A stretch of DNA of 64,000 nucleotides from Dehalococcoidia bacterium (GCA_965248865.1 CBDFKP010000002.1:376610-440609), one strand, 5' to 3'; numbered from the stretch's first letter, positions 28,725-62,862 are shown. A program made the numbers and translations. The notes: generated by a model from the sequence alone, not told the origin.

Positions 28725-28800
28725 AGGAATGCTGGGCTGCCTTTTGGTGGGCCTCTGTGGACAGTACTCGAATTTTCCGCGGCCCCACCTTGTGCGAAGG
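28725..28800 (-). other. relic of an LSR gene tail with att-like centre (site S0)
   Basis: The minus strand reads AENSSTVHRGPPKGSP, compared with Rec tails NRRVRSTVKSGGPDWT and LDFVQSGPPDFT. GTCCA-N4-GGCCCACCA has the same spacing as at 50568-50585. Centre TGGTGGGCCT at 28745-28754. Confidence 0.5.
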
Positions 28801-29028
28801 TTGAGGCTGCTCTTGGGCGAGCCCAACGCTAGTGGCTAGCAGGGGGCCCTCAGGTTAAGAGGAATTTGAGCCTAGTTCTGCCATACGCCACCACCTTCCG
28901 CCCACGCCACTGCATTGCTGTCCGCCCTCTGGCGCTGTTGGGTCTTAAATTGTACAGGGTCAAAGCCCCTGATAGTCATGATAAACACTCATTGGTGCCC
29001 AGGCTAATTATTATTCGCAGTCGGGGGC

Positions 29029-29464
29029 TCATGTCCCTCTAGCTTCAAGAAGGGACTTGAGCCTTCGAAAGTCCGCTTCGATCTGCTTGGGCAACTGCCA
29101 CTCAATCAGCCATTGAACAAGCTTCAGGAGACCACGGGGCTGGAACTCCACACTCACGATCACTCGCGTGCCACCCTCCTCAGGAGCAAAGGCCGTGCAG
29201 CCCTGGGAGTCCAGAGGCCCTAAAGGAGCGCGATAGCAGATCCTATGCGGCGGGTCTACAACGGTAAACTCGTGGGGATGATTGACCTTGCGGCCGAACA
29301 TCTTGCGTATGATGACTTGCGTGGAACCAACCGCGAGTGGTTCCCTCAGGCACAAGGTGGGCTGATACCACGCTGGCCTGCCAGTCGGGGATATTCTGCG
29401 AAGCGTACCTAAACACCTCTTCGATGGGCCGCCGGATCACGACTGATTTCTCCACCGAGAACAT
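29029..29464 (-). pseudogene. SRPBCC-superfamily protein, frameshifted
   Basis: The N-terminal part (MFSVEKSVVIRRPIEEVFRYASQNIPDWQ, ORF 29243-29464) and the C-terminal part (ORF 29029-29355) are in different frames that overlap near 29340. Confidence 0.6.
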
Positions 29465-29465
29465 G

Positions 29466-29790
29466 TCAACCCTCCATCAAGACTCCACCATCTTCATGTC
29501 CCAGCGCATCAATGAACTGTTCCATTCTACAGCCGCTGCAGCAGTCTACAGCCGCTGCAGCAGCAGCGGGTTGTCCATCTGGATTCCGGAAGTGGTGAGA
29601 AATTGGCAAACTTCTTGCCAATATGCCAGATGGTGGGCCTAGGTGTACTGAATTGCGAACTTTTAGGTTGGCCGTTACCTTGTGACCCACCCACGAGAGC
29701 TTTGTGGCGGCCCAAGTCTTCTGGCGGCGCGGCTTCCATTCGACATCAGATGGCCAGAGCATGAGCTCGACCTCACCGTCACAATGCGAT
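29466..29790 (-). pseudogene. possible decayed ArsR/SmtB-type regulator remnant
   Basis: Weak match only: LARSLPISHHFRNPDG resembles the wHTH recognition helix region (..VSHHLR.L..AG). Contains a perfect 19-bp tandem duplication (29526-29563). Lies upstream of the SRPBCC gene, as in common ArsR-SRPBCC pairs. Confidence 0.25.
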
Positions 29791-37076: not shown

Positions 37077-38939
37077 ATGAAGAAGAACCTACAGCCGCTC
37101 ACACCGGCGGCGCTCTACGCCAGGGTCTCCAGCGAGCGGCAGGACGTGGACCTGTCCGTGTCCGCCCAGCTCAGGGCGCTCAAGGACTACGCCAAGGCCA
37201 ACGGCTACTCCGTAGCCCGCGAGTACGTGGACGAGGCCGAGAGCGGACGCGTCGCCGACAGGCCCCAGTTCAGGGAGATGATCGAGGAGGGGAGCAAGCC
37301 AAAGGCCCCGTTCCAGGTCATCTTGGTCTGGAAATTCTCCCGCTTCACCCGAAAGCGGGAGCACGCTGTGGCGTTCAAGTCGATGCTCCGGCGCAAAGGT
37401 GTGAGGGTCGTCTCCATCACCGAACACGCCGACGACTCCCCCACCGGCAAGCTCATGGAGGCCATCATCGAGAGCGTGGACGAGTTTTACAGCGAAAATC
37501 TTGCCGAAGACGTTACGAGGGGAATGAGGGAGGCGGCTTCGAGAGGCTTCTTCCTCGGCTCCAAGGCCCCCTTCGGCTACAAACGAGTCAAGGTCAGCGA
37601 CGGAGCCAAGGAGCGTCCCACCCTGGAGGTTGACCCTGCCACCGCTCCAATAGTGAAGGAAATCTTCGAGAGCTCGCTCAGCGGCTACGGCCTCAAGGAG
37701 ATATGCAGGACCCTGAACGACCGGGGCATCACCAACAGGGGCAAACGCTGGTACAAGGGAGGACTCCACTACCTGCTGACCAACGAAGCCTACACCGGAA
37801 CCGCCGTCTGGGGCAGGACGGCGAAGGTAGAGAAGGCCCAGGACCCGGTGCGAGTGGAGGGAGCATGGCCCGCGCTGGTGTCTAGGGAGCTGTTCGACGC
37901 CGTTCAGGAGGCAATGCGGGACCGAGCACCGAAGGTGCGAAGACCCGCGAGAGTGGGGAGCAGGTTCCTGCTGAGCGGTCTGCTGAAGTGTGGAGTGTGC
38001 GGCAGGCCCTACTCCGGCCAGGGGGCCAAGAGCGGGCAGTTCGCCTACTACATCTGCGGCACACTGTTCAGGGAAGGCGCGGGGACATGCAGCGCCCGCT
38101 ACCTGAACACTCCCAGGGTGGAGGAGTTCGTCGTCGAGAAGATCAGGGAGCGGATTCTGACCGAGGAGACCATCGTTGAGTTGGTGAAGCTGGTGGCCGA
38201 GGAGATCGACGCTATGGCCGGTGAGCTGTCCGGCAGGCTGGAGGTCATCGACGCCGAGCTAGGGGACGTGAGGAAGCGTCTTGAGCGGCTCTACGAGGCC
38301 CTTGAAACGAGCGAGTTGATGTTGGAGGTCCTGTCGCCCCGAATCTTCTCTCTGAGGCACCGTGAGGAGCAGCTTGAGGCTGCGCGTGACGACGCCGCAA
38401 CTCAGTTGGAGCAGCGAAGGGTGGAGTTGCCGACCACCGAGGAGATCAAGGGGTACGTGGCGGACTTCCGGGAGTTCTTGCAAGAAGGGACGTTCCCTGA
38501 GCGCAAGGCGCTCATCCGCAACTTCGTGGAGGGCATTGAGGTCACCGGAGACGAGGCCGTTCTGACGTACACCATCCCCATGCCCAGCGATGGAGTGACC
38601 TCGGAATCGGCCTCGGTTCTTGATTTCGTCCAGTCCGGCCCGCCAGGCGTCCCAGGTGGGCGGCCGTTTTCTCAGTTCTGGACTTGCGAGATGAGAGAGA
38701 GCATGGTGGCCAATGCTGAACGGATGACTCAGTGCTCACAGGGAGTATGGAGCAGCGGGATTGACCAGTCGACAAACAATCCTCTCCGTGAAGTCTTACT
38801 GCAAGATCGGAGGGGTAGCGGATGTCATTTCATTGAGTTTCAAGAAAGTGTGACCACCACCGCGGCTGAGACGCTGTATCAGGAGAGACAACGGCAATGC
38901 GATGGTCGGCGCAAGCTCTTTATCGCAAGCTCTTTATAG
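37077..38939 (+). CDS. large serine recombinase (Rec1); last ~98 codons look like read-through past the att-like site
   Basis: Resolvase catalytic domain (ALYARVSSERQD...VWKFSRFTR), recombinase domain and Zn ribbon (CGVCGRPY...YYICG). Collinear and mostly identical with the 49020-50678 product up to ...VLDFVQSGPP. Confidence 0.88.
   Translation: MKKNLQPLTPAALYARVSSERQDVDLSVSAQLRALKDYAKANGYSVAREYVDEAESGRVADRPQFREMIEEGSKPKAPFQVILVWKFSRFTRKREHAVAFKSMLRRKGVRVVSITEHADDSPTGKLMEAIIESVDEFYSENLAEDVTRGMREAASRGFFLGSKAPFGYKRVKVSDGAKERPTLEVDPATAPIVKEIFESSLSGYGLKEICRTLNDRGITNRGKRWYKGGLHYLLTNEAYTGTAVWGRTAKVEKAQDPVRVEGAWPALVSRELFDAVQEAMRDRAPKVRRPARVGSRFLLSGLLKCGVCGRPYSGQGAKSGQFAYYICGTLFREGAGTCSARYLNTPRVEEFVVEKIRERILTEETIVELVKLVAEEIDAMAGELSGRLEVIDAELGDVRKRLERLYEALETSELMLEVLSPRIFSLRHREEQLEAARDDAATQLEQRRVELPTTEEIKGYVADFREFLQEGTFPERKALIRNFVEGIEVTGDEAVLTYTIPMPSDGVTSESASVLDFVQSGPPGVPGGRPFSQFWTCEMRESMVANAERMTQCSQGVWSSGIDQSTNNPLREVLLQDRRGSGCHFIEFQESVTTTAAETLYQERQRQCDGRRKLFIASSL
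38616..38665 (+). other. att-like site S1 (hybrid: consensus left arm, divergent right arm)
   Basis: GTTC TTGATTTC GTCC AGTC | CGGCCCGCCA | GGCGTCCCAGGTGGGCGGCC. Homology to Rec2 ends at 38646. Confidence 0.55.
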
Positions 38940-39005
38940 TGGTGGTAGGCTATTCTTTGGTGCTGTGGCTGCTACGGTAGTAGTTAGCCTGAAAGGAGGT
39001 ACCCT

Positions 39006-40019
39006 ATGAGATGGATCGGAACCATAGCAACCTCTCTGGTCGTGATAATTATGGCCGTTCCCACCCTGGGGATCGTGCTTTTCTTTGTCCCCGTAGGGTT
39101 GTGGCTAAGTGCGTTGTTCGCCGGTGTCCCGGTGAGCCTGAGCACCTTGATGGGGATGCGTATGCGTAAAGTAAGCCCCAACGCCATCGTCCCGTCCCTG
39201 ATTTCTGCCACCAAGGCAGGTCTAGAGCTCGACATCAACGAGATGGAGGCTCATCACTTGTCCGGTGGATCCGTAGGACGAGTAGTCGCCGCCATGATTT
39301 CTGCCGAAAAGGCGACCATAGAGTTGCCTTGGCGACAAGCCACTGCCATTGACCTAGCCGGGCGTGACGTATTGGAGGCGGTTCAGACCAGCGTCAATCC
39401 CAAGGTCATCAATACACCCAATGTTTCAGCCGTGGCTAAGGACGGCATTCAGCTCATCGCCATTGCCCGGGTAACGGTCCGGGCCAACCTGGACCGGCTT
39501 GTGGGCGGTGCAGGCGAGGAGACCATTCTAGCGCGTGTGGGGGAGGGTACTGTGTCTGCCATCGGCTCGGCTGGCAGTCACAAAGAGGTATTGGAGAATC
39601 CGGATCAGATATCGAAACGGGTGCTGGCGGGTGGGTTGGACCAAGGCACGGCTTTTGAGATACTGTCTATCGATATCGCCGACGTGGACGTTGGAAAGAA
39701 CATCGGTGCTCAGCTTCAGATAGACCAGGCAGAGGCTGACAAGCAGATCGCCCAGGCCCAGGCTGAGCAACGCAGGGCCGCCGCAGTGGCTGCAGAGCAG
39801 GAAATGGTGGCCAAGACTCAGGAGATGCGCGCCCTGGTCGTAGAGGCTGAAGCTGAAGTGCCCAGGGCTATGGCAGAGGCCTTCCGATCGGGTAACCTGG
39901 GAATCATGGACTATCACCGAATGCGCAATATTCAGGCCGATACCCAAATGAGGGAGAGTCTAGGGCAAGATCGGGAACAGGGGCTAGGGGGCCAATCTCC
40001 CGGTGGAAGTGCTTCATAG
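39006..40019 (+). CDS. floA: flotillin-like protein FloA (SPFH domain, UPF0365/YqfA family)
   Basis: Near-collinear with FloA hallmark stretches: [77 protein letters not shown]. Confidence 0.9.
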
Positions 40020-40082
40020 CAGCCGTTTCTAGTACAGTGCAGGCGGTTGTAGTTGAAGCAAAACGAGCGGTAAGGACTTGAT

Positions 40083-40343
40083 ATGGAAAGTAAGGAGGGC
40101 ATGAAAGAACTGCTGAGCCCGCAAGAAGAGAATCTAGAAACGCATCTCAGCGATGAGCCTGAAGGCCAGATACCATCAACTGTTCATCCTACCCCGACCT
40201 TGGGAACTGATGCCGACCTTGGACTCGCTTTTCGCAAGAGAGGGAGCGCTGCGCAGAGGCTGTTGAACCGTGGCAATTTGAGGCGAGCAATCCTGGTGAC
40301 AGAGATACTTTCTCCGCCTTTGACCTTTCGGCCTGGGAGTTAG
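40083..40343 (+). CDS. hypothetical small protein
   Basis: 86-aa ORF downstream of floA with no motif recognised. Coding status uncertain. Confidence 0.3.
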   Translation: MESKEGMKELLSPQEENLETHLSDEPEGQIPSTVHPTPTLGTDADLGLAFRKRGSAAQRLLNRGNLRRAILVTEILSPPLTFRPGS

Positions 40344-40663
40344 ACAGGGGTTCCGGAAATACGTGCTAGAGCAGGTACGAGATTGCACTCTACCGTGGTG
40401 GGAGACCTCGTCCGAGCTTGGTTGGGACCGCGACCGAATCGACGAAAGATGGGAAGGGTAGTCAGATGAGAAGGGAAATAGAAACCCGGTCAAGAGGAGG
40501 AACTATGGCGTCGCAAGAAAAAATAGACCGGATTGAAGCGAAGTGGCGGGAACTTTACGGCAAGGGTCCTGGGAATCTATAGTTTCATCGAGGCTGGCAA
40601 GGAGCGGCTTACTCGGGAGACCGAAGTGCTCCGCGACCTCTCACGTCTCGGTGAGGCCAGTCA

Positions 40664-40957
40664 TCAGCCTCCGTTCGATCCGACCGCTGAGACTGCTGTG
40701 TAGCCGACGAACATCTTCCACTGTTTGCCGTACAATCTAACCACCAACTCAAAGACGGTTCTGCCTACCGTCAACTTAGGCCCACCAGACTTGACAAAAT
40801 CAAGAACTTTCAGCTTGAGATTCAAGCTGGCGGTATAGTAGGTGCTCGGCCTCCAGCAGCAGTAGTGCTCCGGGGCCACGTCCCCAACCAACCTTCCAGT
40901 CGGGCACGGATCTTGCCATTGACTTCGGTCGGTAGTATGTGTAACGATATTACACAC
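40664..40957 (-). pseudogene. LSR gene 3'-tail relic (probably the detached tail of Rec3)
   Basis: The minus strand reads ...LKVLDFVKSGGPKLTVGRTVFEL..., matching the conserved Rec tail VLDFVQSGPP / STVKSGGPDWTKSRT. Confidence 0.55.
40758..40807 (+). other. att-like site S4 (both arms near consensus)
   Basis: GTTC TGCCTACC GTCA ACTT | AGGCCCACCA | GACT TGAC AAAATCAA GAAC. The 14-mer GGCCCACCAGACTT (40779-40792) is identical to 50577-50590. Confidence 0.6.
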
Positions 40958-40983
40958 TCACCTTAGCCCGGTTGGAGGTCGAT

Positions 40984-41259
40984 ATGGCCAGAGTGCAGTT
41001 GGTAATGGCGGACAATGACCGAGACCGCTTTGTTCACCAGGCGCGGCAGTAGGGCATGTCCCTCAGCGCCTGGCTGCGTGAAGCTGCGCACGAGCGCCTC
41101 GAAAAGCGCCAGATCGTCAAGCTATTCCAGTCACCTGAGGACGTTGAGGAGTTTTTCAGGTCATGCGCTACGCTGGAAGGCCCAGAGACGGAGCCGGACT
41201 GGGATGAACACTTGCGCGTCATGAGCGAGTCGCGCGGCCGAGGAGTTGCCAGAACGTGA
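40984..41259 (+). pseudogene. vapB: RHH-type VapB antitoxin with in-frame TAG at codon 23
   Basis: MARVQLVMADNDRDRFVHQARQ*GMSLSAWLREAAHERL, with TAG at 41050-41052. Its stop overlaps the vapC start. Confidence 0.65.
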
Positions 41260-41651
41260 TTTTCGTCGACACCAACGTCTTCATGTACGCCGTAGGACGC
41301 CCCCACGTTCTCCAGACAAATGCCCAAGGATTCTTCGTCGAAGCTAACCGAAGTGGCACACCGCTGTGCACTTCAGCAGAGGTCATGCAGGAACTGGCCC
41401 ATGCGTACTTGCCCATCGGAAGGCTGCAAACCTTCGATGCAACGCTGGACTTGATAGCAAGCGCCGGAGTTGAGGTTTGGCCGCTGGAGGAGGCGGACGT
41501 GGCTCTGGCCCGTCAACTCCATGAGCAATATCCCGCGTTACAAGCCCGAGACCTCTGCCACCTAGCCAGTTGTCGAAGGCGTGGAGTCCGAGAGGTCAAG
41601 ACCTTTGACCAAACATTCGCGGCCGTATCCAGCAATCCATCAATCCCATAG
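41256..41651 (+). CDS. vapC: PIN-domain toxin VapC
   Basis: MIFVDTNVFMYAV, SAEVMQEL and ARDLCHLA give the PIN acidic residues in order. 131 aa. Confidence 0.82.
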   Translation: MIFVDTNVFMYAVGRPHVLQTNAQGFFVEANRSGTPLCTSAEVMQELAHAYLPIGRLQTFDATLDLIASAGVEVWPLEEADVALARQLHEQYPALQARDLCHLASCRRRGVREVKTFDQTFAAVSSNPSIP

Positions 41652-41699
41652 AGGAGAGAGAAACAGGGTTGGCCGCAAGCTAACTGCCTGAATGTAAGT

Positions 41700-44597
41700 A
41701 TGCCACGCCAGACCGAGCCGAACGCGAACAACGCACTGGGCGACCTGCTGCGAGGCATGATGCCGGGCTGTGAAGTCCGCTCCGAGAACACCCAGACCTT
41801 CACCGACCATCCGGGCCGCCACGCCGATGTGCTGATAGCCGCGCCGGGGCGCTCGCCAGTAGTCGTCGAAGCCGAATATGCGCCGGCCTCTGAGGTCGAA
41901 AAGGACGCCTCCGAAAGGCTGGGGCTTCACGTGCAGGGACAACCCCGAACTGTCGAGGCTGCTATCGCAGTTCGCTACCCGCAGGTTGTAGAGGACGCCT
42001 ATGACTTGCGCCCGGTCCTCGCCGAATCCCGTCTTTCCTACTATGTCCTGCACCAAGACGGCAGCCGCTTCCCTGAATCGGGATGGCTTGAGGGTTCGGC
42101 AACCGATCTGGCTGACCTTGGACGACTGGTATCCATACCACAGAAAGCCGTGGAACAGGCGGCCGATACCCTCGAGCAAGGCATTGGGCAGGCCGCCAAC
42201 CTGTTGGAGGACATGGCCAAGCTCCGCCCCAATGTCACTCCTGTCATCGCTCGGTTGCTGGGAATGAGCGACGTTTCCCAGACCCGCCGCATGGCCTGCG
42301 CCATCATCGCTAACGCCATGATCTTCCACCAACGCATCGCAGGGATGCACCAGGAGGTGAAACCTCTGCGGCTGGTGTGCGGCCCCAATGTTGCAGACCC
42401 CCAGGGTGAGGTACTGGCGGCCTGGGAAGATATCCTGAAGATCAACTACTGGCCCATCTTTGCCATAGCCAAGGACATCTTGGAGCAGCTTCCCGGAGAC
42501 GTTGCCACTAGCATCTTGCGGGAACTGTTGGAGACTGCCCAGGAAGTTGAAGCAACCGGCGTCGACAACGCCCACGACCTGACAGGCCGCATATTTCAAC
42601 GGCTTATCGCTGATCGGAAGTATCTGGCTACCTTCTACACGCTTCCAGCCTCGGCCGCGCTGTTGGCCCGGCTCGCCGTGGCCAAGATGGATTCCGTGGA
42701 CTGGTCCGACGCCGGGGCCATCGGCAGGCTGCGCATCGGAGATTTTGCCTGTGGCACCGGTGCCCTGCTGTCGGCGGTGTACGAGCAGGTTGCATCCCGC
42801 CATGAACGCGCTGGTGGCGACTCCACATCGCTGCATCCCGTGATGATGGAGGAGGTCCTATATGGCTGCGACGTCATGCCCTCGGCCATTCACATCACCG
42901 GCTCCACCCTGTCCGGTATGCGGCCCAACGTGGGATTCAATCAGTCCCGTCTCTACACCATGCCCTACGGAAAGCAGAAGGACAGCACGGTGAAGATAGG
43001 TTCCCTGGAGTTACTCCAAGCCTCCACAGCCTTGACCTTGTTCAATACCAGCGACCCAGCTCTGCGCACTGGCAGCGTGGGAGAGGAGACTGCTGCCCAG
43101 ATCAACGTGGACATCCCGGACGCGAACTTTGACCTGGTGATAATGAATCCACCCTTCACCAGGGCAACCAACCATGAAGGTGCCCATGCGGATATCACCA
43201 ACCCCGCCTTCGCCGCATTTGACGCCACGCCCGCTGACCAAACGGAGATGGGACACCGGATCAACCAGTTGGGGAAGGACTCCTGCTACCACGGCAACGC
43301 TGGAATCGCTTCAGCATTCGCTGCGCTGGCCCACAAGAAGCTCAGGTTCGGTGGAGTCCTTGCCCTGGTATTGCCACTGTCGGCAGCCGCTGGTCTTTCA
43401 TGGCAGGGGTTCAGGGAAACGTTGGCCAAGAACTATACCGACCTTACCGTGTTGAGCATCGCGGCTTCGGACAACGATCACCTGTCGTTCTCAGCCGATA
43501 CTGGCATGGCCGAGTGCCTGGTCATAGCTCGCAAGGTCAAGCAAGCTGAGGCACCAACGGGACGAGGGCACTTCATATCCCTGGGCCGCCGTGCCCAAGG
43601 GTTTGCCCATGCAACTTCACTGGCGATGAACGTCTCCAGTCCTCAAAAGGCGAGACGGGTTGAGGATGGGCCTTATGGCGGCACCGCTTTAATGATCGGT
43701 GACGAGCTGGCCGGCGACAGCATGACCGTCCCGGTGCAGACGGACGGGGCATCATGGGGTGCGGTCCGTCTGTCCGACTTATCGCTGGCTCAGGCAGCTT
43801 TCGCATTGGCTAAATCCAAGCTATGGCTTCCCGGCAGCCACTCGGCGTTGGACGTGAAAGTGGCTCCGTTGAACAAGACATCTAAACTCGGCTTGGTTGA
43901 TCGAGACATCACGGGACCACGACCTCGCGGCCCATTCGACAAGATGGCCCCAACTCCTACAGCTACTTATCCGTCTCTGTGGAATCACGATGCTAAGAAC
44001 GAGACTCGGATGGCCTGCCAGCCAGACTCCCAGCTCCGGGTCAGGTCGGGAATGGAGGAGAAAGCCGCAATTGCCTGGGCTACGGCCAGCCGCGCTCACG
44101 TCAATCGCGATTTCAGGTTCAACTCGCAGCCGTTGACCGCAGCGTTCACTGAGCAGGAAAGCATGGGTGGCAGAGCGTGGCCCAACGTAAGGTTTCCAGA
44201 CAGCCGGTTCGATTACGCGTTCACGCTGTGGTCTAACTCTACGCTCGGGCTGCTGCTGTATTGGTGGCACTCAAACCGGCAGCACAGTGGTCGAGGCACC
44301 ACTACTATCAGAAACGTTGAATCACTGCCCGTCCTGGACCTCCACGCCCTCAGCGACGAGCAGCAGCGCACCTCTGAGGCCATCTTCAACGAACTGAGAG
44401 ACATGGAGTTGAAGCCCGCCTATCTTGCCGACGCCGATCCCAACCGGGCGCTGCTGGACCGCAGGATCGTCTGCGATCTTCTGGGCTTCGACGAGGATGT
44501 GTACGAGGGAGTTCGGAGGCTGTCGGCCAAATGGTGCGCCGAGCCGTCGGTGCACGGCGGGAAGGCGCGGCCAAAGGCTGCCCAGCTCGTGATCTAG
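41700..44597 (+). CDS. fused N6-adenine DNA methyltransferase with nuclease-like N-terminus and TaqI_C-like C-terminal domain (type IIG restriction-modification-like)
   Basis: SAM motif I DFACGTGALL (42741-42770) and motif IV NPPF (43146-43157). The C-terminal pattern FTLWSNSTLGLLLYWWH...IRNVESLPVLDL is typical of MTase target-recognition domains. The N-terminal HADVLIAAPGRSPVVVEAEY could be a PD-(D/E)xK-like core. Confidence 0.75.
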   Translation: MPRQTEPNANNALGDLLRGMMPGCEVRSENTQTFTDHPGRHADVLIAAPGRSPVVVEAEYAPASEVEKDASERLGLHVQGQPRTVEAAIAVRYPQVVEDAYDLRPVLAESRLSYYVLHQDGSRFPESGWLEGSATDLADLGRLVSIPQKAVEQAADTLEQGIGQAANLLEDMAKLRPNVTPVIARLLGMSDVSQTRRMACAIIANAMIFHQRIAGMHQEVKPLRLVCGPNVADPQGEVLAAWEDILKINYWPIFAIAKDILEQLPGDVATSILRELLETAQEVEATGVDNAHDLTGRIFQRLIADRKYLATFYTLPASAALLARLAVAKMDSVDWSDAGAIGRLRIGDFACGTGALLSAVYEQVASRHERAGGDSTSLHPVMMEEVLYGCDVMPSAIHITGSTLSGMRPNVGFNQSRLYTMPYGKQKDSTVKIGSLELLQASTALTLFNTSDPALRTGSVGEETAAQINVDIPDANFDLVIMNPPFTRATNHEGAHADITNPAFAAFDATPADQTEMGHRINQLGKDSCYHGNAGIASAFAALAHKKLRFGGVLALVLPLSAAAGLSWQGFRETLAKNYTDLTVLSIAASDNDHLSFSADTGMAECLVIARKVKQAEAPTGRGHFISLGRRAQGFAHATSLAMNVSSPQKARRVEDGPYGGTALMIGDELAGDSMTVPVQTDGASWGAVRLSDLSLAQAAFALAKSKLWLPGSHSALDVKVAPLNKTSKLGLVDRDITGPRPRGPFDKMAPTPTATYPSLWNHDAKNETRMACQPDSQLRVRSGMEEKAAIAWATASRAHVNRDFRFNSQPLTAAFTEQESMGGRAWPNVRFPDSRFDYAFTLWSNSTLGLLLYWWHSNRQHSGRGTTTIRNVESLPVLDLHALSDEQQRTSEAIFNELRDMELKPAYLADADPNRALLDRRIVCDLLGFDEDVYEGVRRLSAKWCAEPSVHGGKARPKAAQLVI

Positions 44598-44696
44598 TGT
44601 CGGTGATCCCGCCGAAGCCAGAGAAGGCGCTTTCCATTCACCGGTGCTGACATGTAGTGGCTGCGCACCGTATATGCACGTTGCTACTATTGATGC

Positions 44697-46406
44697 ATGG
44701 CTCTCACCGAACGACAGCTTCTCGACTCCCTCAGCAGGATGCCTTTCATCGACTCAGCAGAGTTGGCAGGCATCCTGGGGGAGCCTCACACGACCATCCA
44801 CCGCGCCCTAACCGGCCTGCTGGCCGCCGGCGTGGTCGGCCGAGTGAGTCACGGGACTGCCCACCTGCCGTCGAGCCAGAGGTACTACCTGACGGCCAAC
44901 GGCATCGGGGAGGCCGCCGGGATACTCGGCTTCGACACCCCATCGGACTTCGTGCGAATCTACCCGGTGTCCAGGGAGTGGCTGGCGCTGCTCATCCGCC
45001 GGATGGACGCGGTGGCCGCCGTCTATCGTCTCGCCGCCTCACTCTCCCCCGGCATCGACGGCCTACGGTCGCACGTGGAGTTCCACCGCCGGGGCCGCTT
45101 CGACGCCACGATCACCCTCCACGACGGGCGCAGCTTCGGAATGGTACGCCAGAGCCTGGCTCTTCGTCGGCGCTCGCTCTACGACCGGCTGAGGGCCATA
45201 GCGGAGTACGACTACACGCGCCGCCCTGACACGATCCTGGTCCTGACCCCCAGCGTCTGGGAGCAGAGACTGACAACGAGGTTCTGCATGGAGCTGAACC
45301 TTGAAGGCTCTTACGTCGGCGAGGAGTCTCGGGACGTACTCGAAAGACGGGACTCCCACGTCTGGCAGAAGACCTCAGGCCTGTTCAGTGGCTCGTACTA
45401 CACCCTCGATTTCGTGAGCTCACAGGGCGACGCCAGCGGAAGACTCTGCACCGAGTCCCCGAATCGGAAGCGGGCATCGATACCCCATCCTGAGCGGATG
45501 GTGCGGGCTGCGCCGACCTTCGGCATCAGCCCATCGGAGAAGCGGACCCTCGACCTAGTTACCGACCACCCTATGACCCCCCGTGAGCACCTGGCTCGCT
45601 GGCTCGGCGTTTCGGAGGGACGGGTTAGCCAGATGATGCATAACCTCGTCGATACGTGGGGCTTGATGGAGCGACAGGGAAAACGTGGAGACACGCGCTA
45701 CACCCTGTCCACCGAGGGCATCCGCTACATCACCCACCGGGACCGCGCCCAGCTCCCCACCACGCAGGGCATCTGGAGCACGGCCCTCACGACCGACCGG
45801 CAGGACCGGAGACGACACGTAGGCCATCGGATCGACACGTGGGCGCGTCAGACGAAGCACGCCGACGGCATCACATGGTTCCTCTCAAAGTTTGAGGCGG
45901 AGACCCGGGCCGATTCCGACAGCGAGCTGCTCTGGTCTGTCCCCACCGCGAGGTCCGACCGGGCCTACAACTGGGGCGATTCCGCTATTGCTCCCGACGC
46001 CGTGGGGAAGGTGATTGCACAGGGCCTCGACGTACCGTTCTACCTCGAGTACGAGCTGCGGGCCAGGCATCCCCAGGGAGTCATTGCCCGCCTGAGTCCC
46101 TACACGAGCTACTACTGGTCCACCGAACCAGGGGAAGACCAGCCCCCGTTCCCCACCACCCTGTTCGTCGTGGACACAGAGGAGGTCGAGGCCACCTACG
46201 TGCGCACGGCGGCCAGGATGAGTCTGATGTCGCTGCCCATACTCGTGTCCTGCATGCCCGTCTTGTCCACAACAGGGATACTGGGGCGGTCATGGCATCC
46301 CCTCTGGGAGCCGGAATCCCCGCGACTGGCCCTGTCAGGGCTGAGCGCCTACCAGTGGGACCCACTCTACCACCGGATGCGTCAGCGTCCTGTAGGGGGG
46401 GAATAG
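44697..46406 (+). CDS. duplicated wHTH / Replic_Relax-like protein
   Basis: Two wHTH modules (LSRMPFIDSAELAGILGEPHTTIHRALTGLLAAGVV and DHPMTPREHLARWLGVSEGRVSQMMHNLVDTWGLM). Each is followed by a PDA...FYLEYE-type segment as in replication-relaxation family proteins. Confidence 0.6.
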   Translation: MALTERQLLDSLSRMPFIDSAELAGILGEPHTTIHRALTGLLAAGVVGRVSHGTAHLPSSQRYYLTANGIGEAAGILGFDTPSDFVRIYPVSREWLALLIRRMDAVAAVYRLAASLSPGIDGLRSHVEFHRRGRFDATITLHDGRSFGMVRQSLALRRRSLYDRLRAIAEYDYTRRPDTILVLTPSVWEQRLTTRFCMELNLEGSYVGEESRDVLERRDSHVWQKTSGLFSGSYYTLDFVSSQGDASGRLCTESPNRKRASIPHPERMVRAAPTFGISPSEKRTLDLVTDHPMTPREHLARWLGVSEGRVSQMMHNLVDTWGLMERQGKRGDTRYTLSTEGIRYITHRDRAQLPTTQGIWSTALTTDRQDRRRHVGHRIDTWARQTKHADGITWFLSKFEAETRADSDSELLWSVPTARSDRAYNWGDSAIAPDAVGKVIAQGLDVPFYLEYELRARHPQGVIARLSPYTSYYWSTEPGEDQPPFPTTLFVVDTEEVEATYVRTAARMSLMSLPILVSCMPVLSTTGILGRSWHPLWEPESPRLALSGLSAYQWDPLYHRMRQRPVGGE

Positions 46407-46527
46407 ATAGGGCCGATGTGTCCCTATCTCCCCGGTATGCTGTCTGGGGCTGGAAGTTGGGATAACCGGAGCGATTTCTGAGGTCTGTCGACGCCCAAAC
46501 TGCCCTGTTTTAGCTATGAACCGGGGT

Positions 46528-46630
46528 TGACGTGTCGCCTGACGTGTCATGGAGCAAATTGGGATTCTGCGCTAAAATACAGGGGCCGAAGAATTGTAGT
46601 TTTGCAACCCATGACGAGGGCTGACGTGTC
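46528..46630 (+). promoter_or_regulatory. three direct copies of TGACGTGTC around the start of the excisionase-like gene
   Basis: Copies at 46528-46536, 46540-46548 and 46622-46630. A TAAAAT -10-like hexamer lies at 46573-46578. Confidence 0.4.
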
Positions 46631-47117
46631 AACCGATAGAGAAGAAAAAGCTAGGCATGAGCCTGTCCGCTGGGTCTCGAAAACAGAGGCGGCGGAGGAG
46701 CTGGAGATATCCCTTTCAACTCTCGATCGGAAGATCAGGAAGGGAGAGGTCGAGGTTGTCCGTGAGGGCCGCCGGGTCTATGTGCGGATGCACGGGTCGG
46801 AGTATCTGAGCGACCACGAGCTGCTGCGCCGGGCCATCGCCAGGGAGGATGAGCTTCAGCGGACAGTGCGGGAGTTGGAGCGGAGCGTGTCGGACTTGGA
46901 TCTTAGAGCATCCGAGTTGGAGCGGGAGCGGGACGAGGCCAGGGAGTCCGCATCCGCCAGCAGACGGCCTTACGAGGAGCTGGAGAAGGCGTACCGGAAG
47001 GAGATCGCCGAGCATAAGGAGACGAAGGAAGTGGTCATCGCAGTACGCGTGACCGCCATCGTGCTGTTGGTGCTTCTGGTCGCCAGCGTTCTCGTGTGGT
47101 GGTTTGTGCTGAGGTAG
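46611..47117 (+). CDS. excisionase-family HTH protein with coiled coil and C-terminal TM helix
   Basis: VSKTEAAEELEISLSTLDRKIRKGEVEVVREGRRVYV (HTH_17-like), then a heptad-rich acidic/basic segment, then VIAVRVTAIVLLVLLVASVLVWWFVL. Confidence 0.65.
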   Translation: MTRADVSTDREEKARHEPVRWVSKTEAAEELEISLSTLDRKIRKGEVEVVREGRRVYVRMHGSEYLSDHELLRRAIAREDELQRTVRELERSVSDLDLRASELERERDEARESASASRRPYEELEKAYRKEIAEHKETKEVVIAVRVTAIVLLVLLVASVLVWWFVLR

Positions 47118-47574
47118 GGCGTCCACGCGTTGTGCTGTGCCTGGACCACCTGCAGAGGCAACGGACGGGGAGCACGGCTCACGGAACCCGGTTCGGGGCC
47201 TATCCCCAGTTCCCGTCACTTTGTACAGCGGCATTTTGTCCACTTTTGTAGGTAGCATTGTCCTCTGCCGCCCGATTTGCCAACCGGCGTTTTGTTCACT
47301 CTCGTAGCTAAGACTGTTCTGTGGCCGTGGAAGGAGCACCAGAATCAAATTGCTTGCTCCGATGTCGCAGACTGCTTGGTTTCCCCTCGATTTCAGCTAG
47401 GAAATCACCAAACCTACAACTCGTCCACAAACTCAAACTCCTGTACACGTGTATGACACCACCATAGGCTCCGCGATTCTCCTGCCCTGTGAGGGGGGCT
47501 GCGTGCGAGCCCTGCCAGACCCGTCGTTGCATCCGCAACAACTTCGTCTATCCACTGGGAACCAGTGTTTAGCC

Positions 47575-47603
47575 TTGACATGATTAACGGCACACGTTAA
47601 TAT
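47575..47603 (+). promoter_or_regulatory. sigma70-type promoter with embedded palindromic operator upstream of higB
   Basis: TTGACA (47575-47580), 17-nt spacer, TAATAT (47598-47603). Inverted repeat ATTAACG-N5-CGTTAAT (47583-47601). Confidence 0.6.
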
Positions 47604-47605
47604 CA

Positions 47606-47890
47606 TTGGCGGTGGATAGATTTCGAGATGGCGACGCTCAACGCCTCTTCGCCGGACAAACGGTTCGGCGCTTACCGCCTGACATTCAACGCAGGGCGAG
47701 GATGCGGTTACAACGGGTGATTGCAGCTACGGCGTTGACCGACCTTCGGGTGCCACCATCCCATCGGCTGGAAGCATTGCGGGGAGACCGGGCTGGGCAG
47801 TTCAGCATCCGCATAAACGACCAGTGGCGGGTGTGCTTCATCTGGACAGACCAGGGCGCGATGGAGATAGAAATCACTGACTACCACTGA
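47606..47890 (+). CDS. higB: HigB-type (RelE/ParE superfamily) toxin
   Basis: RFRDGDAQRLF...LRVPPSHRLEALRGDRAGQFSIRINDQWRVCFIW...EIEITDYH is the canonical HigB pattern. The start may be a leaderless GTG at 47612. Confidence 0.85.
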   Translation: MAVDRFRDGDAQRLFAGQTVRRLPPDIQRRARMRLQRVIAATALTDLRVPPSHRLEALRGDRAGQFSIRINDQWRVCFIWTDQGAMEIEITDYH

Positions 47891-47901
47891 GGAGGACATC
47901 A

Positions 47902-48195
47902 ATGACTAATACGGTCGAACCGATTCACCCTGGAGAGCATCTGTCAGAGATCATGGAGGAGCTGGGCATCACCCAGTATCGCCTGGCAAAGACCATAGGA
48001 GCGCCGCCTATACGCATCCATGACATCGTGCATTGTCGGAGGTCCATCACTGTGGACACTGCGCTGAAGATCGGAAAGGCTCTGGGAACAACTCCGGAGT
48101 TCTGGTTGAATCTTCAGCGGATGTACGACCTGGACGTAGCCCGGGCCACTACCGACGTAAGTGGGATTGAGCCTCTGGTCAAGGCGTCTGCATGA
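47902..48195 (+). CDS. higA: HigA-type antitoxin (XRE HTH)
   Basis: IHPGEHLSEIMEELGITQYRLAKTIGAPPIRIHDIVHCRRSITVDTALKIGKALGTTPEFWLNLQ is the canonical HigA pattern. Confidence 0.88.
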   Translation: MTNTVEPIHPGEHLSEIMEELGITQYRLAKTIGAPPIRIHDIVHCRRSITVDTALKIGKALGTTPEFWLNLQRMYDLDVARATTDVSGIEPLVKASA

Positions 48196-48956
48196 TGCAG
48201 GAATCGCGGTTGCCCCCGAACCTGCGAGGTGGCGCAAGTTTCAGCCACTTTAATCCCCAATCCAGTCTGCTGGCCAATGGCCTAGACTTTCTAGTCAGCG
48301 CCGCGGAGTTTGCATCACGTGATGACGAACGAAGTTGGAAATATGCCGTCTTGCATCTGTGGTACGGGCTGGAATTGCTCCTAAAGGCGAGGTTAGAGCG
48401 TGAGCACTGGTCGCTGCTATTTTCCAACATTGACCACGCAGATCGGCTGAAGCTCATCAGCGGCGACTTCTTATCAGTAGATTCTAACCAAGCCTATAAA
48501 CGTCTCAAGCAGATTTGCGACATCGAGATAGACCCTTCGGACTGGAAACACTTGATTGCACTGCGGAATCGAAGCAACCGCATCAGGCATCATGTTGCTG
48601 AATACAACTCCATACAGGTCAAGTCAATGGTGTGGAGGTGTATGAACATCGGTCTTGCATTTTGTGAATCACAACAGATGCAAGAGGACAGTAGAACAAT
48701 TCAAAGGCAGTTCTATAAAGTTGGCTCGCTTTTGAAGGGGTTTGACGATTTTGTCAATGACCGGTTGAAAGTCATTTCGTTGCACCCTGATTTCGACCCC
48801 GATGTAAAATGCATGGAGTGTTGGCAAACTACTTGTGTCATTGATGCCAACGGAATCCTGTGTCAGTTTTGTGGGGTAGAGATTGATGCTGAAACCCTAA
48901 ACCAGTGGATGGCGGAGATAGAATTAGACGCCTCGGACAGTGCAGAACACCAATAG
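48192..48956 (+). CDS. hypothetical protein with HEPN-like Rx4-6H motif and C-terminal CxxC...CxxC Zn ribbon
   Basis: ATG overlaps the higA stop (ATGA). LIALRNRSNRIRHH (48564-48593) fits the HEPN RNxxxH-type motif. CMEC...CQFC lies at 48810-48872. AT-richer than neighbours. Confidence 0.6.
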   Translation: MMQESRLPPNLRGGASFSHFNPQSSLLANGLDFLVSAAEFASRDDERSWKYAVLHLWYGLELLLKARLEREHWSLLFSNIDHADRLKLISGDFLSVDSNQAYKRLKQICDIEIDPSDWKHLIALRNRSNRIRHHVAEYNSIQVKSMVWRCMNIGLAFCESQQMQEDSRTIQRQFYKVGSLLKGFDDFVNDRLKVISLHPDFDPDVKCMECWQTTCVIDANGILCQFCGVEIDAETLNQWMAEIELDASDSAEHQ

Positions 48957-49019
48957 GCGAATGCCGCAGATCAGGACCAATGTGACTAGAAAGGGATGAC
49001 AAATAGGGAGGAAGACTAA

Positions 49020-50678
49020 ATGAAACATAAGCAACCCCTAACACCCGCGGCCCTCTACGCCAGGGTGTCCAGCGACCGTCAGGACGTGGACCTGTCCGTG
49101 TCCGCCCAGCTCAGAGCGCTCAAGGACTACGCCAGAGCCAACGGCTACTCCGTGGCCCGCGAGTACGTGGACGAGGCCGAGAGCGGCCGCGTGGCCGACA
49201 GGCCCCAGTTCCGGGAGATGATTGAGGAGGGCGGCAAGCCCAACGCTCCCTTTGAGGTCATCTTGGTATGGAAATTCTCCCGCTTCACCCGCAAGCGGGA
49301 GCACGCCGTCGCTTTCAAGTCCATGCTGCGGCGCAAGGGCATCCGCGTCGTGTCCATCACCGAGCACGCCGACGACTCCCCGACCGGCAAGCTCATGGAG
49401 GCCATCATCGAGAGCGTGGACGAATTTTACTCAGAGAATCTTGCGCAGGAGGTCGTCCGTGGTATGCGGGAAGCCGCATCACGAGGCTTCTTCCTCGGCT
49501 CCAAGGCCCCCTTCGGCTACAGGCGGGTCAAGGTCAGCGACGGAGCCAAGGAGCGTCCCACCCTGGAGGTTGACCCTGCCACCGCTCCGGTGGTGAAGGA
49601 GATATTCGAGAGTTCGCTCAGCGGCTACGGCCTCAAGGAAATATGCAGGACCCTGAACGACCGGGGCATCACCAACAGGGGAAAGCGCTGGTACAAGGGA
49701 GGACTCCACTACCTGCTGACCAACGAAGCCTACACCGGAACCGCCGTCTGGGGCAGAACCACCAAGGTAGAGAAGGCCCAGGACCCGGTGCGAGTGGAGG
49801 GAGCATGGCCCGCCCTGGTGTCTAGGGAGCTGTTCGATGCCGTGCAGCAGGCGATGCGGGACCGTGCCCCGAAGGTGCAGAGGCCCGGTAGAGTGGGGAG
49901 CAAGTTCCTGCTGAGCGGTCTGCTCAAGTGCGGGGTGTGCGGCAGGCCCTACAGTGGCCAGGGGGCCAAGAGCGGCCAGTTCGCCTACTACGTCTGCGGG
50001 ACATTGTTCCGGGAGGGAGCGGGGACGTGCAGCGCACGCTACCTGAACGCCCCCAGGGTGGAGGACTTCATTGTTGAGAAGATACGGGAGCGAATTCTCA
50101 CCGAGGAGACCATCGTGGAGCTGGTGACCCTGGTGGCGGAAGAGATCGACGCAATGGCCGGTGAGCTGTCCGGCAGGCTGGAGGTCATCGAGGCCGAGCT
50201 AGGGGACGTGAGGAAGCGTCTTGAGCGGCTCTACGAGGCCCTTGAAACGAGCGAGTTGACGTTGGAGGTCCTGTCGCCCCGAATCTTCTCGCTGAGGCAC
50301 CGTGAGGAGCAACTGGAGGCTGCGAGAGAGGACGCCGAGACCCAGCTTGAGCAGCGGAGGGTTGAGCTTCCGACCACCGAGGAGATCAAGGGGTACGTGG
50401 CGGACTTCCGGGAGTTCTTGCAAGAGGGGACGTTCCCCGAGCGCAAGGCCCTCATCCGCAACTTCGTGGAGGGCATCGAGGTGGTGGGAGACGAGGCGAC
50501 GCTGACGTACACCGTTCCCATGCCAAAGGACGGTGTGAAGCGGGAATCGGCCTCGGTTCTCGATTTCGTCCAGTCCGGCCCACCAGACTTTACTGTACTG
50601 CGAACTCGCCTGTTTAGGGCGACCTCTGCGGTGTCCGCTCCCCCTATTGGCGAGTCCTCCGGCGTGGGTATGGAGTAG
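49020..50678 (+). CDS. large serine recombinase (Rec2)
   Basis: Same domain set as Rec1. Its tail VLDFVQSGPPDFTVLRT runs through the att-like site, and the last about 30 codons are antisense to Rec3. Confidence 0.88.
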   Translation: MKHKQPLTPAALYARVSSDRQDVDLSVSAQLRALKDYARANGYSVAREYVDEAESGRVADRPQFREMIEEGGKPNAPFEVILVWKFSRFTRKREHAVAFKSMLRRKGIRVVSITEHADDSPTGKLMEAIIESVDEFYSENLAQEVVRGMREAASRGFFLGSKAPFGYRRVKVSDGAKERPTLEVDPATAPVVKEIFESSLSGYGLKEICRTLNDRGITNRGKRWYKGGLHYLLTNEAYTGTAVWGRTTKVEKAQDPVRVEGAWPALVSRELFDAVQQAMRDRAPKVQRPGRVGSKFLLSGLLKCGVCGRPYSGQGAKSGQFAYYVCGTLFREGAGTCSARYLNAPRVEDFIVEKIRERILTEETIVELVTLVAEEIDAMAGELSGRLEVIEAELGDVRKRLERLYEALETSELTLEVLSPRIFSLRHREEQLEAAREDAETQLEQRRVELPTTEEIKGYVADFREFLQEGTFPERKALIRNFVEGIEVVGDEATLTYTVPMPKDGVKRESASVLDFVQSGPPDFTVLRTRLFRATSAVSAPPIGESSGVGME

Positions 50679-51733
50679 ACGATGGCGGCCTTGCCGGGCT
50701 TGACCTCGATCTCCTTGACGAAGGAGTGGACGAAGGCCCTGGTCTCGGTAAGCTCGCTGGTTTTCAGGAAGTCGCTCATCTCGGCGGCGAAGGTGGCGAC
50801 AGTGTCGGCGCTGTCCAGGAACTGCCGCCGTTCCGAGAACAGCCCTCTGGCCTCCTCCGCGGCGACCTCCAGCTTCTCCTTGCGCTCCCGGAGTTCCACG
50901 ATGAGGTCCGAAGCCTCGGCCACGTCGACGCTGTCGCTTTTCGCTACGAAGTTCCAGACGCGGCCCAGTTGCTTCTTCACGTCCTCAAGCTCTTCGTCGA
51001 TGGTCTGAAGCCGCTGCCGCTGCTCGTGGGCCACCCCGTCCATCTCCTCGTCCAGCAGCTTCACCAGGTCGCGGATGTTGGACTCGGTGAGGATGTTGGC
51101 CCGAATCTCATCGACGATGAGCTTCTCGAAGGACTTGGCGTTGAGCCTGGGGGTCTCGCAGGCGCCGCTGCCCCGCTTGAGGAGGGAGTGGCAGACGTAG
51201 TAGGTGTACTTACCGCCCTTGGCCTCGGCCGCGGTCATGGCCTTGCCGCAGGTCTCGCACCTGAGCAGACCGCTGAGCAGGTAGGGGCTGGCGGAGCGCC
51301 GTGGGTGGACCTTCTTCGGAGCGCGGGACCCCAGCAGCTTGGTGACCCTTTGGAACTGCCGCCTGGAGACGATGGCGGGGTGTGCGCCCTCGACGCGCAC
51401 GGGCGGCGCGCCGTCCTTCGCGGTTGTTCCCCAGACCAACGTGCCTGTGTAGGCTTCGTTGAGCAGCACGTTGTGGACGGAGGTCTTGGACCACTGCTTT
51501 CCCCTGGGGCTGGCCACGCCCTCGGCGTTGAGGGCCTTGGTCACGTCGAGGGTGCTGCTGCCCTGGAGCACCATGTCGAAGATGCGGCGGGCCACGGCAT
51601 CGGCGGGCGGGTCAAGCTCCAGCTTGGGGCGCTTCTTCGGCCCGTCCTGGACGTAGACCTTCCGGTAGCCGTAGGGGGCGTAGGTGGTGACCCAGAATCC
51701 GCGAGAAGCGGCTTCCCGCATCCCCCGCGCCAC
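50231..51733 (-). pseudogene. large serine recombinase (Rec3), 5'-truncated (catalytic resolvase domain missing)
   Basis: Starts at the equivalent of Rec1/2 residue about 145 (ILAQEVARGMREAASRGFW vs NLAQEVVRGMREAASRGFF), with homology lost at about 51750. Recombinase domain and Zn ribbon (CETCGKAM...YYVCH) are present. Codons beyond ...STVKSGGPDWT are antisense to Rec2. Confidence 0.75.
50556..50605 (+). other. att-like site S2/3, fully symmetric arms
   Basis: GTTC TCGATTTC GTCC AGTC | CGGCCCACCA | GACT TTAC TGTACTGC GAAC. The left arm ends Rec2 (+) and the right arm ends Rec3 (-). Confidence 0.65.
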
Positions 51734-51931
51734 CTCTTGGGCGAGGATATCGGTTATTCAATCGAAACAAAAAGATCAGGTATACATGGGCGGTTGGACT
51801 TGAAGCCAGTTGACAGCGACGATTGCTCACGAAACCTGCGTGGTTCGAACCCCCGTTACCGGGGGCCTAGGATAGAAACGAGAAGAATTAAGCCCACATT
51901 TCCCAGATCAGCCGCGTGGGTGCGTCGTAAT

Positions 51932-62621: not shown

Positions 62622-62649
62622 GCCCTAGAGAAGCGACTCTGCCCATTCA

Positions 62650-62862
62650 GGGGATTAGCCGCCAACTCCAGTTCCACCACTCCCAGCGGCATCCAAGTCC
62701 ACCCCCCACGAGAACCGCAGTTTTTGGTGTCGATTGAGAAATGGGGATGGTGTAGTGGATCGTGGCCTTGCCGGGCCTGACTTCGATCTCCTTGACAAAG
62801 GAGTGGATGAAGGCCCGCGACTCGGTTAGCTCGCTGGTCTTCAGGTACTCGCTCCATCTCCG
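62650..62862 (-). pseudogene. LSR gene 3' fragment (Rec3-like) with diverged att-like end (site S5)
   Basis: SEYLKTSELTESRAFIHSFVKEIEVRPGKATIHYTIP compares with Rec3 SDFLKTSELTETRAFVHSFVKEIEVKPGKAAIVYSIP. The 5' break abuts the stop of the next gene. Confidence 0.7.

Follow-up and report, generated by a model that had tools for sequence, protein, structure and literature searches.

A probable tRNA-end-derived attachment site overlapping the last codons of large serine recombinase genes in Dehalococcoidia

Here we describe a 64,000-nucleotide stretch of a Dehalococcoidia bacterium genome (GCA_965248865.1, CBDFKP010000002.1:376610-440609; hereafter the window, with positions counted from its first letter) that carries two intact large serine recombinase genes, Rec1 and Rec2, and the remnant of a third, Rec3. 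Comparison with related loci makes it very probable that a motif at the 3' ends of these genes is the attachment (att) site of a multi-copy family of integrative elements of the Dehalococcoidia moved by CcrB-like large serine recombinases, and that this site reproduces a tRNA gene's 3' end while overlapping the final ten recombinase codons. Support for the att-site interpretation is good, and the new details are the tRNA-end origin of the centre of the site and the grammar of its half-sites. One element, E2, is bounded by two such sites in the window, and the elements are probably mobilisable.

Results

The site comprises two 20-bp half-sites, or arms, with a 10-bp centre between them (50 bp in total). 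Rec1/Rec2-type elements and arms are termed alpha, those of Rec3 type beta or gamma, and the inverted far-end arm of an alpha element alpha'. The sites, genes and element under discussion are as follows.

40758-40807, plus strand: predicted attL of E2; outside arm GTTCTGCCTACCGTCAACTT (gamma*-type), centre AGGCCCACCA, element arm alpha' GACTTGACAAAATCAAGAAC
50556-50605, plus strand: predicted attR of E2; left (alpha) arm GTTCTCGATTTCGTCCAGTC and centre CGGCCCACCA, together the last ten conserved Rec2 codons (VLDFVQSGPP), then right (outside) arm GACTTTACTGTACTGCGAAC, which is the Rec3 tail (VRSTVKSGGP) on the opposite strand
38616-38645, plus strand: Rec1 junction; left alpha arm plus centre, CGGCCCGCCA, with divergence directly after; predicted attR of a decayed alpha-type element
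29611-29660, minus strand: additional site; beta*-type arm GTTCGCAATTCAGTACACCT and perfect centre AGGCCCACCA
28725-28774, minus strand: plausible but degenerate relic, in which a beta*-like (Rec3-type-like) arm missing 1 nt leads into a perfect centre AGGCCCACCA; second arm absent
62701-62856, minus strand: fragment of a Rec3-like C-terminus, 61.5% identical to Rec3 residues 319-365
37077-38939, plus strand: Rec1, intact paralogue of Rec2
49020-50678, plus strand: Rec2, intact large serine recombinase, 552 aa
50576-51745, minus strand (nominal open reading frame 50231-51733): Rec3, beta-type recombinase remnant, an N-terminally truncated pseudogene
40783-50580, plus strand: E2, alpha-type integrative element of about 9.8 kb, its boundaries taken from the L019/L036 similarity and the L083 empty-site comparison described below

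Rec2-type genes occur at no fewer than 533 loci in GTDB representative genomes, nearly all of them metagenome-assembled genomes of Dehalococcoidia, with several copies per genome. The comparative set consisted of 120 protein clusters and 80 fetched loci (labelled L0xx), and related loci amounting to 1.79 Mb were searched.

The initial annotation of this DNA had laid out the two full sites, and the half-site at 38616-38645, exactly as we read them, and its translations of the centre, Gly-Pro-Pro in Rec1 and Rec2 and Gly-Gly-Pro in Rec3, are correct. It had also called the arms mirror images; the matching positions stand, but the symmetry amounts to only 12/20 at each full site of the window, and 50-bp windows reaching 12/20 number 130 in the 64 kb against 98 +/- 9 in shuffled sequence. 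Arm symmetry at a single site is therefore at the level of chance, proves nothing, and has been dropped as evidence. The significance of the sites rests instead on their shared register and on the comparative data, which go far beyond chance: a degenerate 29-nt arm-plus-centre pattern has its only matches in the window at 38616, 40779 (minus strand) and 50556, and matched nothing in 100 shuffles. As to the proposed relics, that at 28725-28774 is plausible although its arm is degenerate, whereas no att site is recognisable at 62685-62712, though a real Rec3-like fragment (62701-62856) adjoins it. A better site than either, at 29611-29660, had been overlooked; its arm is identical at 19/20 positions to an arm in L001 (20170) that abuts an alpha' end. 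The sites of the window form an array at 28.7, 29.6, 38.6, 40.7 and 50.5 kb.

Two further observations belong beside these relics. Between the sites at 28.7 and 29.6 kb, positions 29020-29069 show 15/20 arm complementarity (GTCGGGGGCTCATGTCCCTC ... AAGGGACTTGAGCCTTCGAA) that is unrelated to the att motif. At 62647-62856 (minus strand) a recombinase C-terminal fragment is joined after ...YTIP to ISQSTPKTAVLVGGGLGCRWEWWNWSWRLIP*, and nearly the same end closes a Rec2-type protein cluster (P0115, 104 members), making it a recurrent alternative 3' end.

The sites at 40.7 and 50.5 kb had been taken for two copies of one site. On sequence comparison they read instead as the attL and attR of a single element, E2, for which there are three independent observations. 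First, from 40782 on, L019 and L036 share 83-87% identity with the window over about 6 kb, and this similarity starts within the centre. Second, L083, a contig from another sample, contains an uninterrupted site, GTTCGCAGTACAGTAAAGTC TGGTGGGCCT AAGTTGACGGTAGGCAGAAC CGTCTTTGAG, that is identical at 50/50 positions, plus 10 further bases, to the target reconstructed by joining the two outside halves (gamma*-type arm, centre and Rec3 tail); once 40783-50580 is removed, the window can be aligned through the junction to L083, L084 and L085 at 96.7% identity. Third, the reciprocal join, which takes its left half from the 50.5-kb site and its right half from the 40.7-kb site, produces an attP, GTTCTCGATTTCGTCCAGTC CGGCCCACCA GACTTGACAAAATCAAGAAC, whose arms match at 17/20, a value that no 50-bp window in the 64-kb sequence attains, and an intact alpha-centre-alpha' site, GTTCTTGATTTCGTCCAGTC CGGCCCACCA GACTTGATAAAATCAAGAAC, lies between two tandem elements in L081, a different genome, with 17/20 arm matches of its own and 47/50 agreement with the reconstruction. 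The predicted circular alpha-centre-alpha' junction reads GATTTCGTCCAGTCCGGCCCACCAGACTTGACAAAATC, and the predicted junction free of E2 in the window's genome reads AGTAAAGTCTGGTGGGCCTAAGTTGACGG.

The Rec3 side of this junction can be followed on both flanks of E2. The original 3' end of Rec3 resumes at 40782 and runs down to 40664 (KLTVGRTVFELVV...), while the residues of Rec2 beyond ...SGPP (from 50586) are antisense Rec3 sequence gained at the junction. The truncated Rec3-like gene with its tail site (50576-51853, minus strand) is 96.7% identical in L083, L084 and L085, three other contexts, and the remnant and site seem to travel or persist as a unit. The left flank of the window (38650-40790, with floA) found no homologue among the 80 loci, hence no same-locus empty site.

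The order of events would then be as follows. A circular alpha element with the attP alpha-centre-alpha' would have recombined with a gamma*-type arm plus Rec3 tail site, and this integration would have left attL at 40758-40807 and attR at 50556-50605 around 9.8 kb of element. Rec1 would end in the attR of an older, decayed alpha copy, for which the 64-kb window has neither a recognisable outside arm nor a matching alpha' end; the sites at 28.7 and 29.6 kb would be leftovers of further elements and the 62.7-kb stretch a gene fragment, the whole forming an accretion array riddled with insertion sequences (IS).

Constraint on the site acts at the level of DNA. The proteins are conserved as far as ...VLDFV(Q/K)SGPP and then diverge completely, in 120 clusters and at 80 loci. 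Column entropy over 82 copies is near zero at index 0-28 of the site (except at index 5, 11, 15 and 21), being at most 0.5 bit at index 22-28, and rises to 1.1 bit at index 29 and to about 1.8 bits from index 30. Third codon positions vary by 1-1.9 bits upstream of the site and are nearly invariant inside its 30 nt, so the last ten codons are under constraint as DNA. Nine related loci yielded 11 inverted alpha' arms, each accompanied by a centre of the same orientation, in a search covering elements whose far end fell within the fetched DNA; seven lie 7.5-11.1 kb upstream of their own locus's recombinase-end site and the remainder mark neighbouring elements. In E2 the alpha' arm of attL (GACTTGACAAAATCAAGAAC) is likewise an inverted, non-coding copy of the Rec2 tail arm, as would be expected if the enzyme binds as a symmetric dimer, so that the far-end half-site has to mimic the coding tail. 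The central proposal of the initial annotation, which equates the V-x-S-G-(P/G)-P tail with the att site translated from one strand or the other, is thus borne out by the divergence of 80 loci after the centre, the frozen third positions, the inverted far-end arms and the restoration of a known site when E2 is deleted.

The sequence just inside the alpha' end is conserved as well. About 60 nt are shared between elements with different cargo, including a stop codon (T(G/A)TAG, about 30 nt past the alpha' arm and about 57 nt inside the element end; 40808-40839 in the window and at related loci). Because of this stop, the enzyme encoded in the attP configuration would end in ...SGPPDLTKSRTFSLRFKLAV (DLIKSRTFSLNLKLLL in cluster P0111), at a length of 540-541 aa as against the 552 aa of the integrated Rec2. 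This tail of the excised form is conserved, at 16-19 aa, whereas the tails of integrated forms differ at every junction; integration would swap all residues after ...SGPP, so that the tail of the enzyme would change each time.

Rec1 and Rec2 share 89% DNA identity (37092-38646 against 49032-50586), and their similarity ends one base past the 10-bp centre; the Rec1 reading frame continues for 98 codons beyond the junction, into unrelated DNA. Both contain Pfam PF00239 (resolvase), PF07508 (recombinase) and PF13408 (zinc-ribbon), and ALYARVSS(E/D)RQ, at residues 11-21 of Rec2 and 12-22 of Rec1, is invariant across a 28-sequence alignment and represents the N-terminal catalytic serine motif of large serine recombinases. 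The best NCBIfam match of Rec2 is CcrB, at 162 bits against a cut-off of 900. Comparison by sequence with solved structures gave matches to the N-terminal, recombinase and zinc-ribbon parts only, leaving the tail uncovered. The alignment of Rec3 covers Rec2 residues 141-529; the catalytic domain PF00239 is missing from Rec3, which converges on Rec2. Its tail, ...VRSTVKSGGP, reads the centre antisense, and an IS transposase gene (52051-53382) lies just upstream of it. The alpha, beta and gamma subfamilies are 42-60% identical to one another and share V-x-x-x-V-x-S-G-(P/G)-P. As the only recombinase of E2, Rec2 would be the enzyme that acts on its sites.

The asymmetry of the centre has an apparent source, which the initial annotation had overlooked. 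The alpha inner arm plus centre, GTCCAGTCCGGCCCACCA, matches a tRNA-Ile end, GTCCAGGCTGGCCCACCA, at 16/18 positions, and on this comparison it reproduces the terminal part of a tRNA gene, from the close of the T-arm through the 3' strand of the acceptor to the discriminator A and CCA. Junctions with real tRNA genes were observed at two loci, both with beta/gamma-type recombinases. In L082 a Rec3-type (beta) gene converges on tRNA-Ile(GAT), the site reading TCCCTGGTTCGAGTCCAGGC TGGCCCACCA GACTGTACTGTACTGCGAAC in the tRNA frame with the CCA of the tRNA as the last 3 nt of the centre. L011 shows a second case, tRNA-Val(TAC) abutting a gamma' arm in that register, with a recombinase gene that converges on it. 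Because the centre copies a tRNA 3' end, it can be read in two orientations. In alpha elements the copy forms the last recombinase codons in tRNA sense (TCC GGC CCA CCA, S-G-P-P); in beta and gamma elements the gene enters from the opposite flank and runs over the copy in antisense (TCT GGT GGG CC., S-G-G-P), and many Rec3-type proteins do end in antisense-tRNA peptides, for example ...SGGPAWTRTRDLSLIRTAL.

Fragments of about 25-30 nt that resemble a tRNA or tmRNA 3' end, with the gene itself absent, stand beside alpha' ends in L019 (419-448), L043 (1267-1296) and L003 (12735-12784). Those of L019 and L043 read TTCGA(A/G)TCCCC(T/C)CAGCTCCACCA, and two isolated fragments appear to resemble the 3' end of ssrA. 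ARAGORN was negative for all three loci and Rfam gave no tRNA or tmRNA at the alpha junctions of L003 and L043; the fragments may be displaced 3' remnants of other islands.

The half-sites follow a common grammar. Element arms (alpha, alpha', beta, beta*, gamma and gamma*) have GTTC at index 0-3 and GT(C/A) at index 12-14, whereas tRNA-type arms have GTTC at index 6-9 (GTTCGAGTCC, T-loop) while keeping GTCC at index 12-15 as in element arms. This 6-bp inward shift of GTTC parallels that of an A118-family integrase of a Listeria innocua prophage, in which the zinc-ribbon-domain motif lies 5 bp further inward in attB than in attP (PMC3783163), and is what the attP/attB model of serine integrases predicts. 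The reconstructed attP, with its 17/20 arms around CGGCC|CACCA, likewise has the form of serine integrase sites, an imperfect inverted repeat of 40-50 bp with a central dinucleotide. Its dyad lies between both C's of CGGCC|CACCA and junction sequences begin to vary 2-4 bases to the right of the dyad, from which strand exchange would take place at the non-palindromic CC of the centre (CC 40782-40783 in attL and CC 50580-50581 in attR). The palindromic GC at index 22-23 was considered as the crossover, since it would explain both orientations of the centre, and was rejected for putting the dyad 2 bp off the arm symmetry.

In 15-17 of the 80 alpha junctions the right arm carries the mirror-image motif GGAYTCGAAC at exactly index 34-43 (L001, L003, L005, L006, L014, L015, L028, L029, L036, L040, L041, L051, L054, L055, L059, L069 and L075); 11 of the 26 exact occurrences in the 1.79 Mb fall on alpha-junction right arms. 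These arms have no tRNA, no T-stem complement and unrelated flanks, and they behave like host-type right half-sites. No symmetric unoccupied host site with the T-loop motif on both arms was found in the 1.79 Mb.

Discussion

Several points weigh against the proposal of a tRNA-derived att site used by a mobile family. ARAGORN, run on the window and on the alpha junctions examined across 32 related loci, found no tRNA or tmRNA, so that the primary chromosomal target is not visible in the window; an intact tRNA or tmRNA gene was expected at the tRNA-like arms of alpha junctions, and these arms proved to be isolated fragments or motifs. The host site of E2 has element-type spacing on both arms, and a canonical serine integrase should not use such an attB. 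The one intact attP, in L081, is a tandem junction and not a circle, and a degenerate 38-nt attP pattern had no match in JGI metagenome contigs or IMG/VR, where the family may be absent. An AlphaFold2 model from the 28-sequence alignment (mean predicted local distance difference test score, pLDDT, of 43.6) is too poor to judge disorder in the tail.

The alternative that survives best keeps the same sites and enzymes but has the array grow solely as one element after another integrated at a hybrid site close to a tRNA (tRNA arm plus element arm), in the manner of tandem islands at ssrA, with the tRNA lost later through IS-mediated rearrangement; we regard this as a genuine, though minority, possibility. 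Tandem accretion beside ssrA is documented for Dehalococcoides islands (PMC3146451); the junction types to be expected (tRNA-type/alpha', tRNA/gamma' and gamma*/tRNA-type') are all seen, and the window holds many IS copies. On the gamma* side, moreover, the similarity to the L083 empty site gives out some 40 nt beyond the junction, which leaves room for independent formation. Against this, there is no tRNA anywhere in the 64 kb, and the target is identical over 60 nt to an uninterrupted site attached to a 96.7%-identical Rec3 remnant.

Direct insertion of E2 into a gamma*/Rec3-tail junction is the simplest reading of the L083 comparison, and it would imply relaxed pairing of sites. The junctions found across loci (alpha/gamma', alpha/beta', alpha/tRNA-type', beta*/alpha', gamma*/alpha', tRNA-type/alpha', gamma*/tRNA-type' and tRNA/gamma') are the products expected if related elements accumulate side by side; they suggest relaxed pairing, but serial accretion could also explain them. 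Extended to its full scope, direct insertion would mean that these recombinases are free of the attP x attB rule and insert into any junction with a tRNA-end centre, including one of two element-type half-sites, that arrays grow by nesting, that the obligatory swap of the C-terminal tail senses integration state as in IntP/IntX of Mx8, and that these serine integrases are a clear case of tRNA genes serving as targets, the T-arm supplying the host half-site. We think this whole rather unlikely, and offer relaxed pairing and the tail switch as hypotheses.

Two other explanations concern the shared motif itself. That VLDFVQSGPP is a functional C-terminal peptide kept by selection on the protein, with DNA similarity secondary, could appeal to the V-x-x-x-V-x-S-G-(P/G)-P common to the alpha, beta and gamma subfamilies. 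It is nonetheless very improbable: codons upstream vary freely at their synonymous third positions, whereas precisely these 10 are frozen there, the same nucleotides are kept in non-coding inverted copies, the beta/gamma motif is the reverse complement of the same DNA and not an independent peptide, and the sequence equals a tRNA 3' end. Still harder to maintain is that the palindrome is a by-product, without site function, of two homologous recombinase genes converging with overlapping 3' ends. The right arm at 50556-50605 is indeed the Rec3 tail on the opposite strand, and its 12/20 symmetry is that of chance, but the alpha' arm at 40788-40807 and the arms in nine other loci lie where there is no recombinase gene, similarity between copies stops precisely at the centre in 80 loci, and excising the segment between both sites restores a site that is intact elsewhere (L083).

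That E2 is a transposon with 16-20-bp terminal inverted repeats, moved by a different enzyme that duplicated a 14-bp target, can be all but discarded, for although E2 has inverted-repeat ends and an identical 14-bp direct repeat (GGCCCACCAGACTT) on both flanks, of which the empty site has one copy, the supposed duplication has the same sequence in all 80 unrelated contexts and equals a tRNA 3' end, as site-specific recombination would have it, two tandem elements share a single centre (L081), and E2 encodes no transposase, its sole recombinase gene ending in the site.

Among known systems, the ssrA islands of Dehalococcoides with their recombinase DsiB are the closest to the proposed family (McMurdie et al. 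2011, PMC3146451). These islands form tandem arrays separated by repeats of the ssrA 3' end, in the same bacterial class, with a CcrB-like serine recombinase of about 540 aa at the island edge, its 3' end toward the att site, and the 3' end of a tRNA-like gene as target; the sites of our window and L081 likewise form tandem arrays. The target here is of tRNA type (tRNA-Ile and tRNA-Val in related loci), in contrast to the ssrA of DsiB with its 20-bp 3'-end repeats, and E2 has neither a small DsiA partner recombinase nor the six-gene integration module. The paper infers an insertion point in the T-loop, whereas our dyad lies in the acceptor strand, and a keyword search of it brought up neither a site overlapping the recombinase frame nor palindromic attP arms.

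Canonical phage serine integrases (A118/LI, Bxb1 and phiC31; Rutherford et al. 2013, PMC3783163) share with the Rec2-type enzymes the domain architecture, imperfect inverted repeats of about 50 bp with a central dinucleotide, and an outer motif nearer the centre in host-type half-sites (by 6 bp here, by 5 bp in LI). They differ in recombining only attP x attB, usually at protein-coding targets, whereas in this family insertions are commonly seen at element-type/element-type or mixed junctions, the target resembles a tRNA end and attP lies inside the integrase gene. In this last respect the parallel is Myxococcus phage Mx8 IntP/IntX, where attP also lies within int and integration gives a new 3' end and an altered C-terminus (PMC6070905), as we find for the recombinase frames here; the Mx8 Int is, however, a tyrosine recombinase, and the changed activity or specificity that is conjecture here was shown by experiment there.

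Islands in tRNA genes (tDNA) resemble the present family in carrying a copy of the tRNA 3' end that leaves the gene intact and in lying between the tDNA and tDNA-like fragments, but their signature (Islander) includes a tyrosine integrase, where ours is of the serine family, and Hudson et al. 2015 (PMC4383910) state that no serine-family integrase was known with tRNA genes as its target; intact tRNA junctions are present in L082 and L011 and absent from the window. The Ccr recombinases of SCCmec (CcrAB, CcrC) include the closest named family, CcrB, and also use a site at the 3' end of a conserved gene and build composite tandem arrays, and Ccr enzymes show relaxed site-pair selectivity. The family differs from SCCmec in the weak CcrB match (162 against 900 bits), the single recombinase of E2 without a CcrA partner, and the target. 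In streptococci, elements that encode a serine integrase are known to integrate within genes belonging to other mobile elements.

Serine integrases are valued as genome-engineering tools for their short sites and strict directionality, and natural families with well-resolved attP/attB grammars are useful for this purpose; in the family described here hundreds of natural junctions display element-type and host-type half-sites in one register, told apart by a 6-bp shift of one motif. The family also ties a serine integrase to tRNA 3' ends, long seen as the domain of tyrosine integrases (PMC4383910), the only near precedent found for a serine integrase at a tRNA-like end being the predicted ssrA-specific DsiB of Dehalococcoides. 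With attP inside the integrase frame, the enzyme of the free element would differ from that of the integrated one, and a regulatory role for this tail swap may be envisaged. Relaxed pairing, if true, would turn the family into a natural exception to the coiled-coil gating model and would help to explain how island arrays build up in Dehalococcoidia.

Other features of the window

The cargo of E2, from its left end to Rec2 at its right edge, is as follows.

41056-41651: putative antitoxin (no family match) and PIN toxin
41700-44597: type IIG restriction-modification-like gene
44697-46406: conserved 569-aa winged-helix protein, with weak replication-relaxation and nicking matches (replication-relaxation in the L081 homologue)
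46527-47117: 196-aa excisionase-family helix-turn-helix protein (weak match)
47606-48195: HigB/HigA-like pair
48192-48956: 254-aa unknown protein

The E2 genes include no DDE or other transposase and no second serine recombinase. The excisionase-family protein is the only candidate directionality factor in E2. Related elements carry Mrr and other restriction-modification genes (L081), and the family appears to ferry defence and addiction genes.

Three near-identical repeat pairs (98.9-99.8%), two of them inverted, lie at 30088-31638/59392-60940, 22473-23318/34331-35176 and 35178-35535/53276-53633; they are presumably IS copies, making the region prone to rearrangement. Far from the att sites, the window also contains a tandem duplication of about 0.85 kb (2885-3712/3819-4655, 70% identical) and a 64-bp repeat, 98% identical, whose copies are 560 bp apart (12107-12170/12670-12733).

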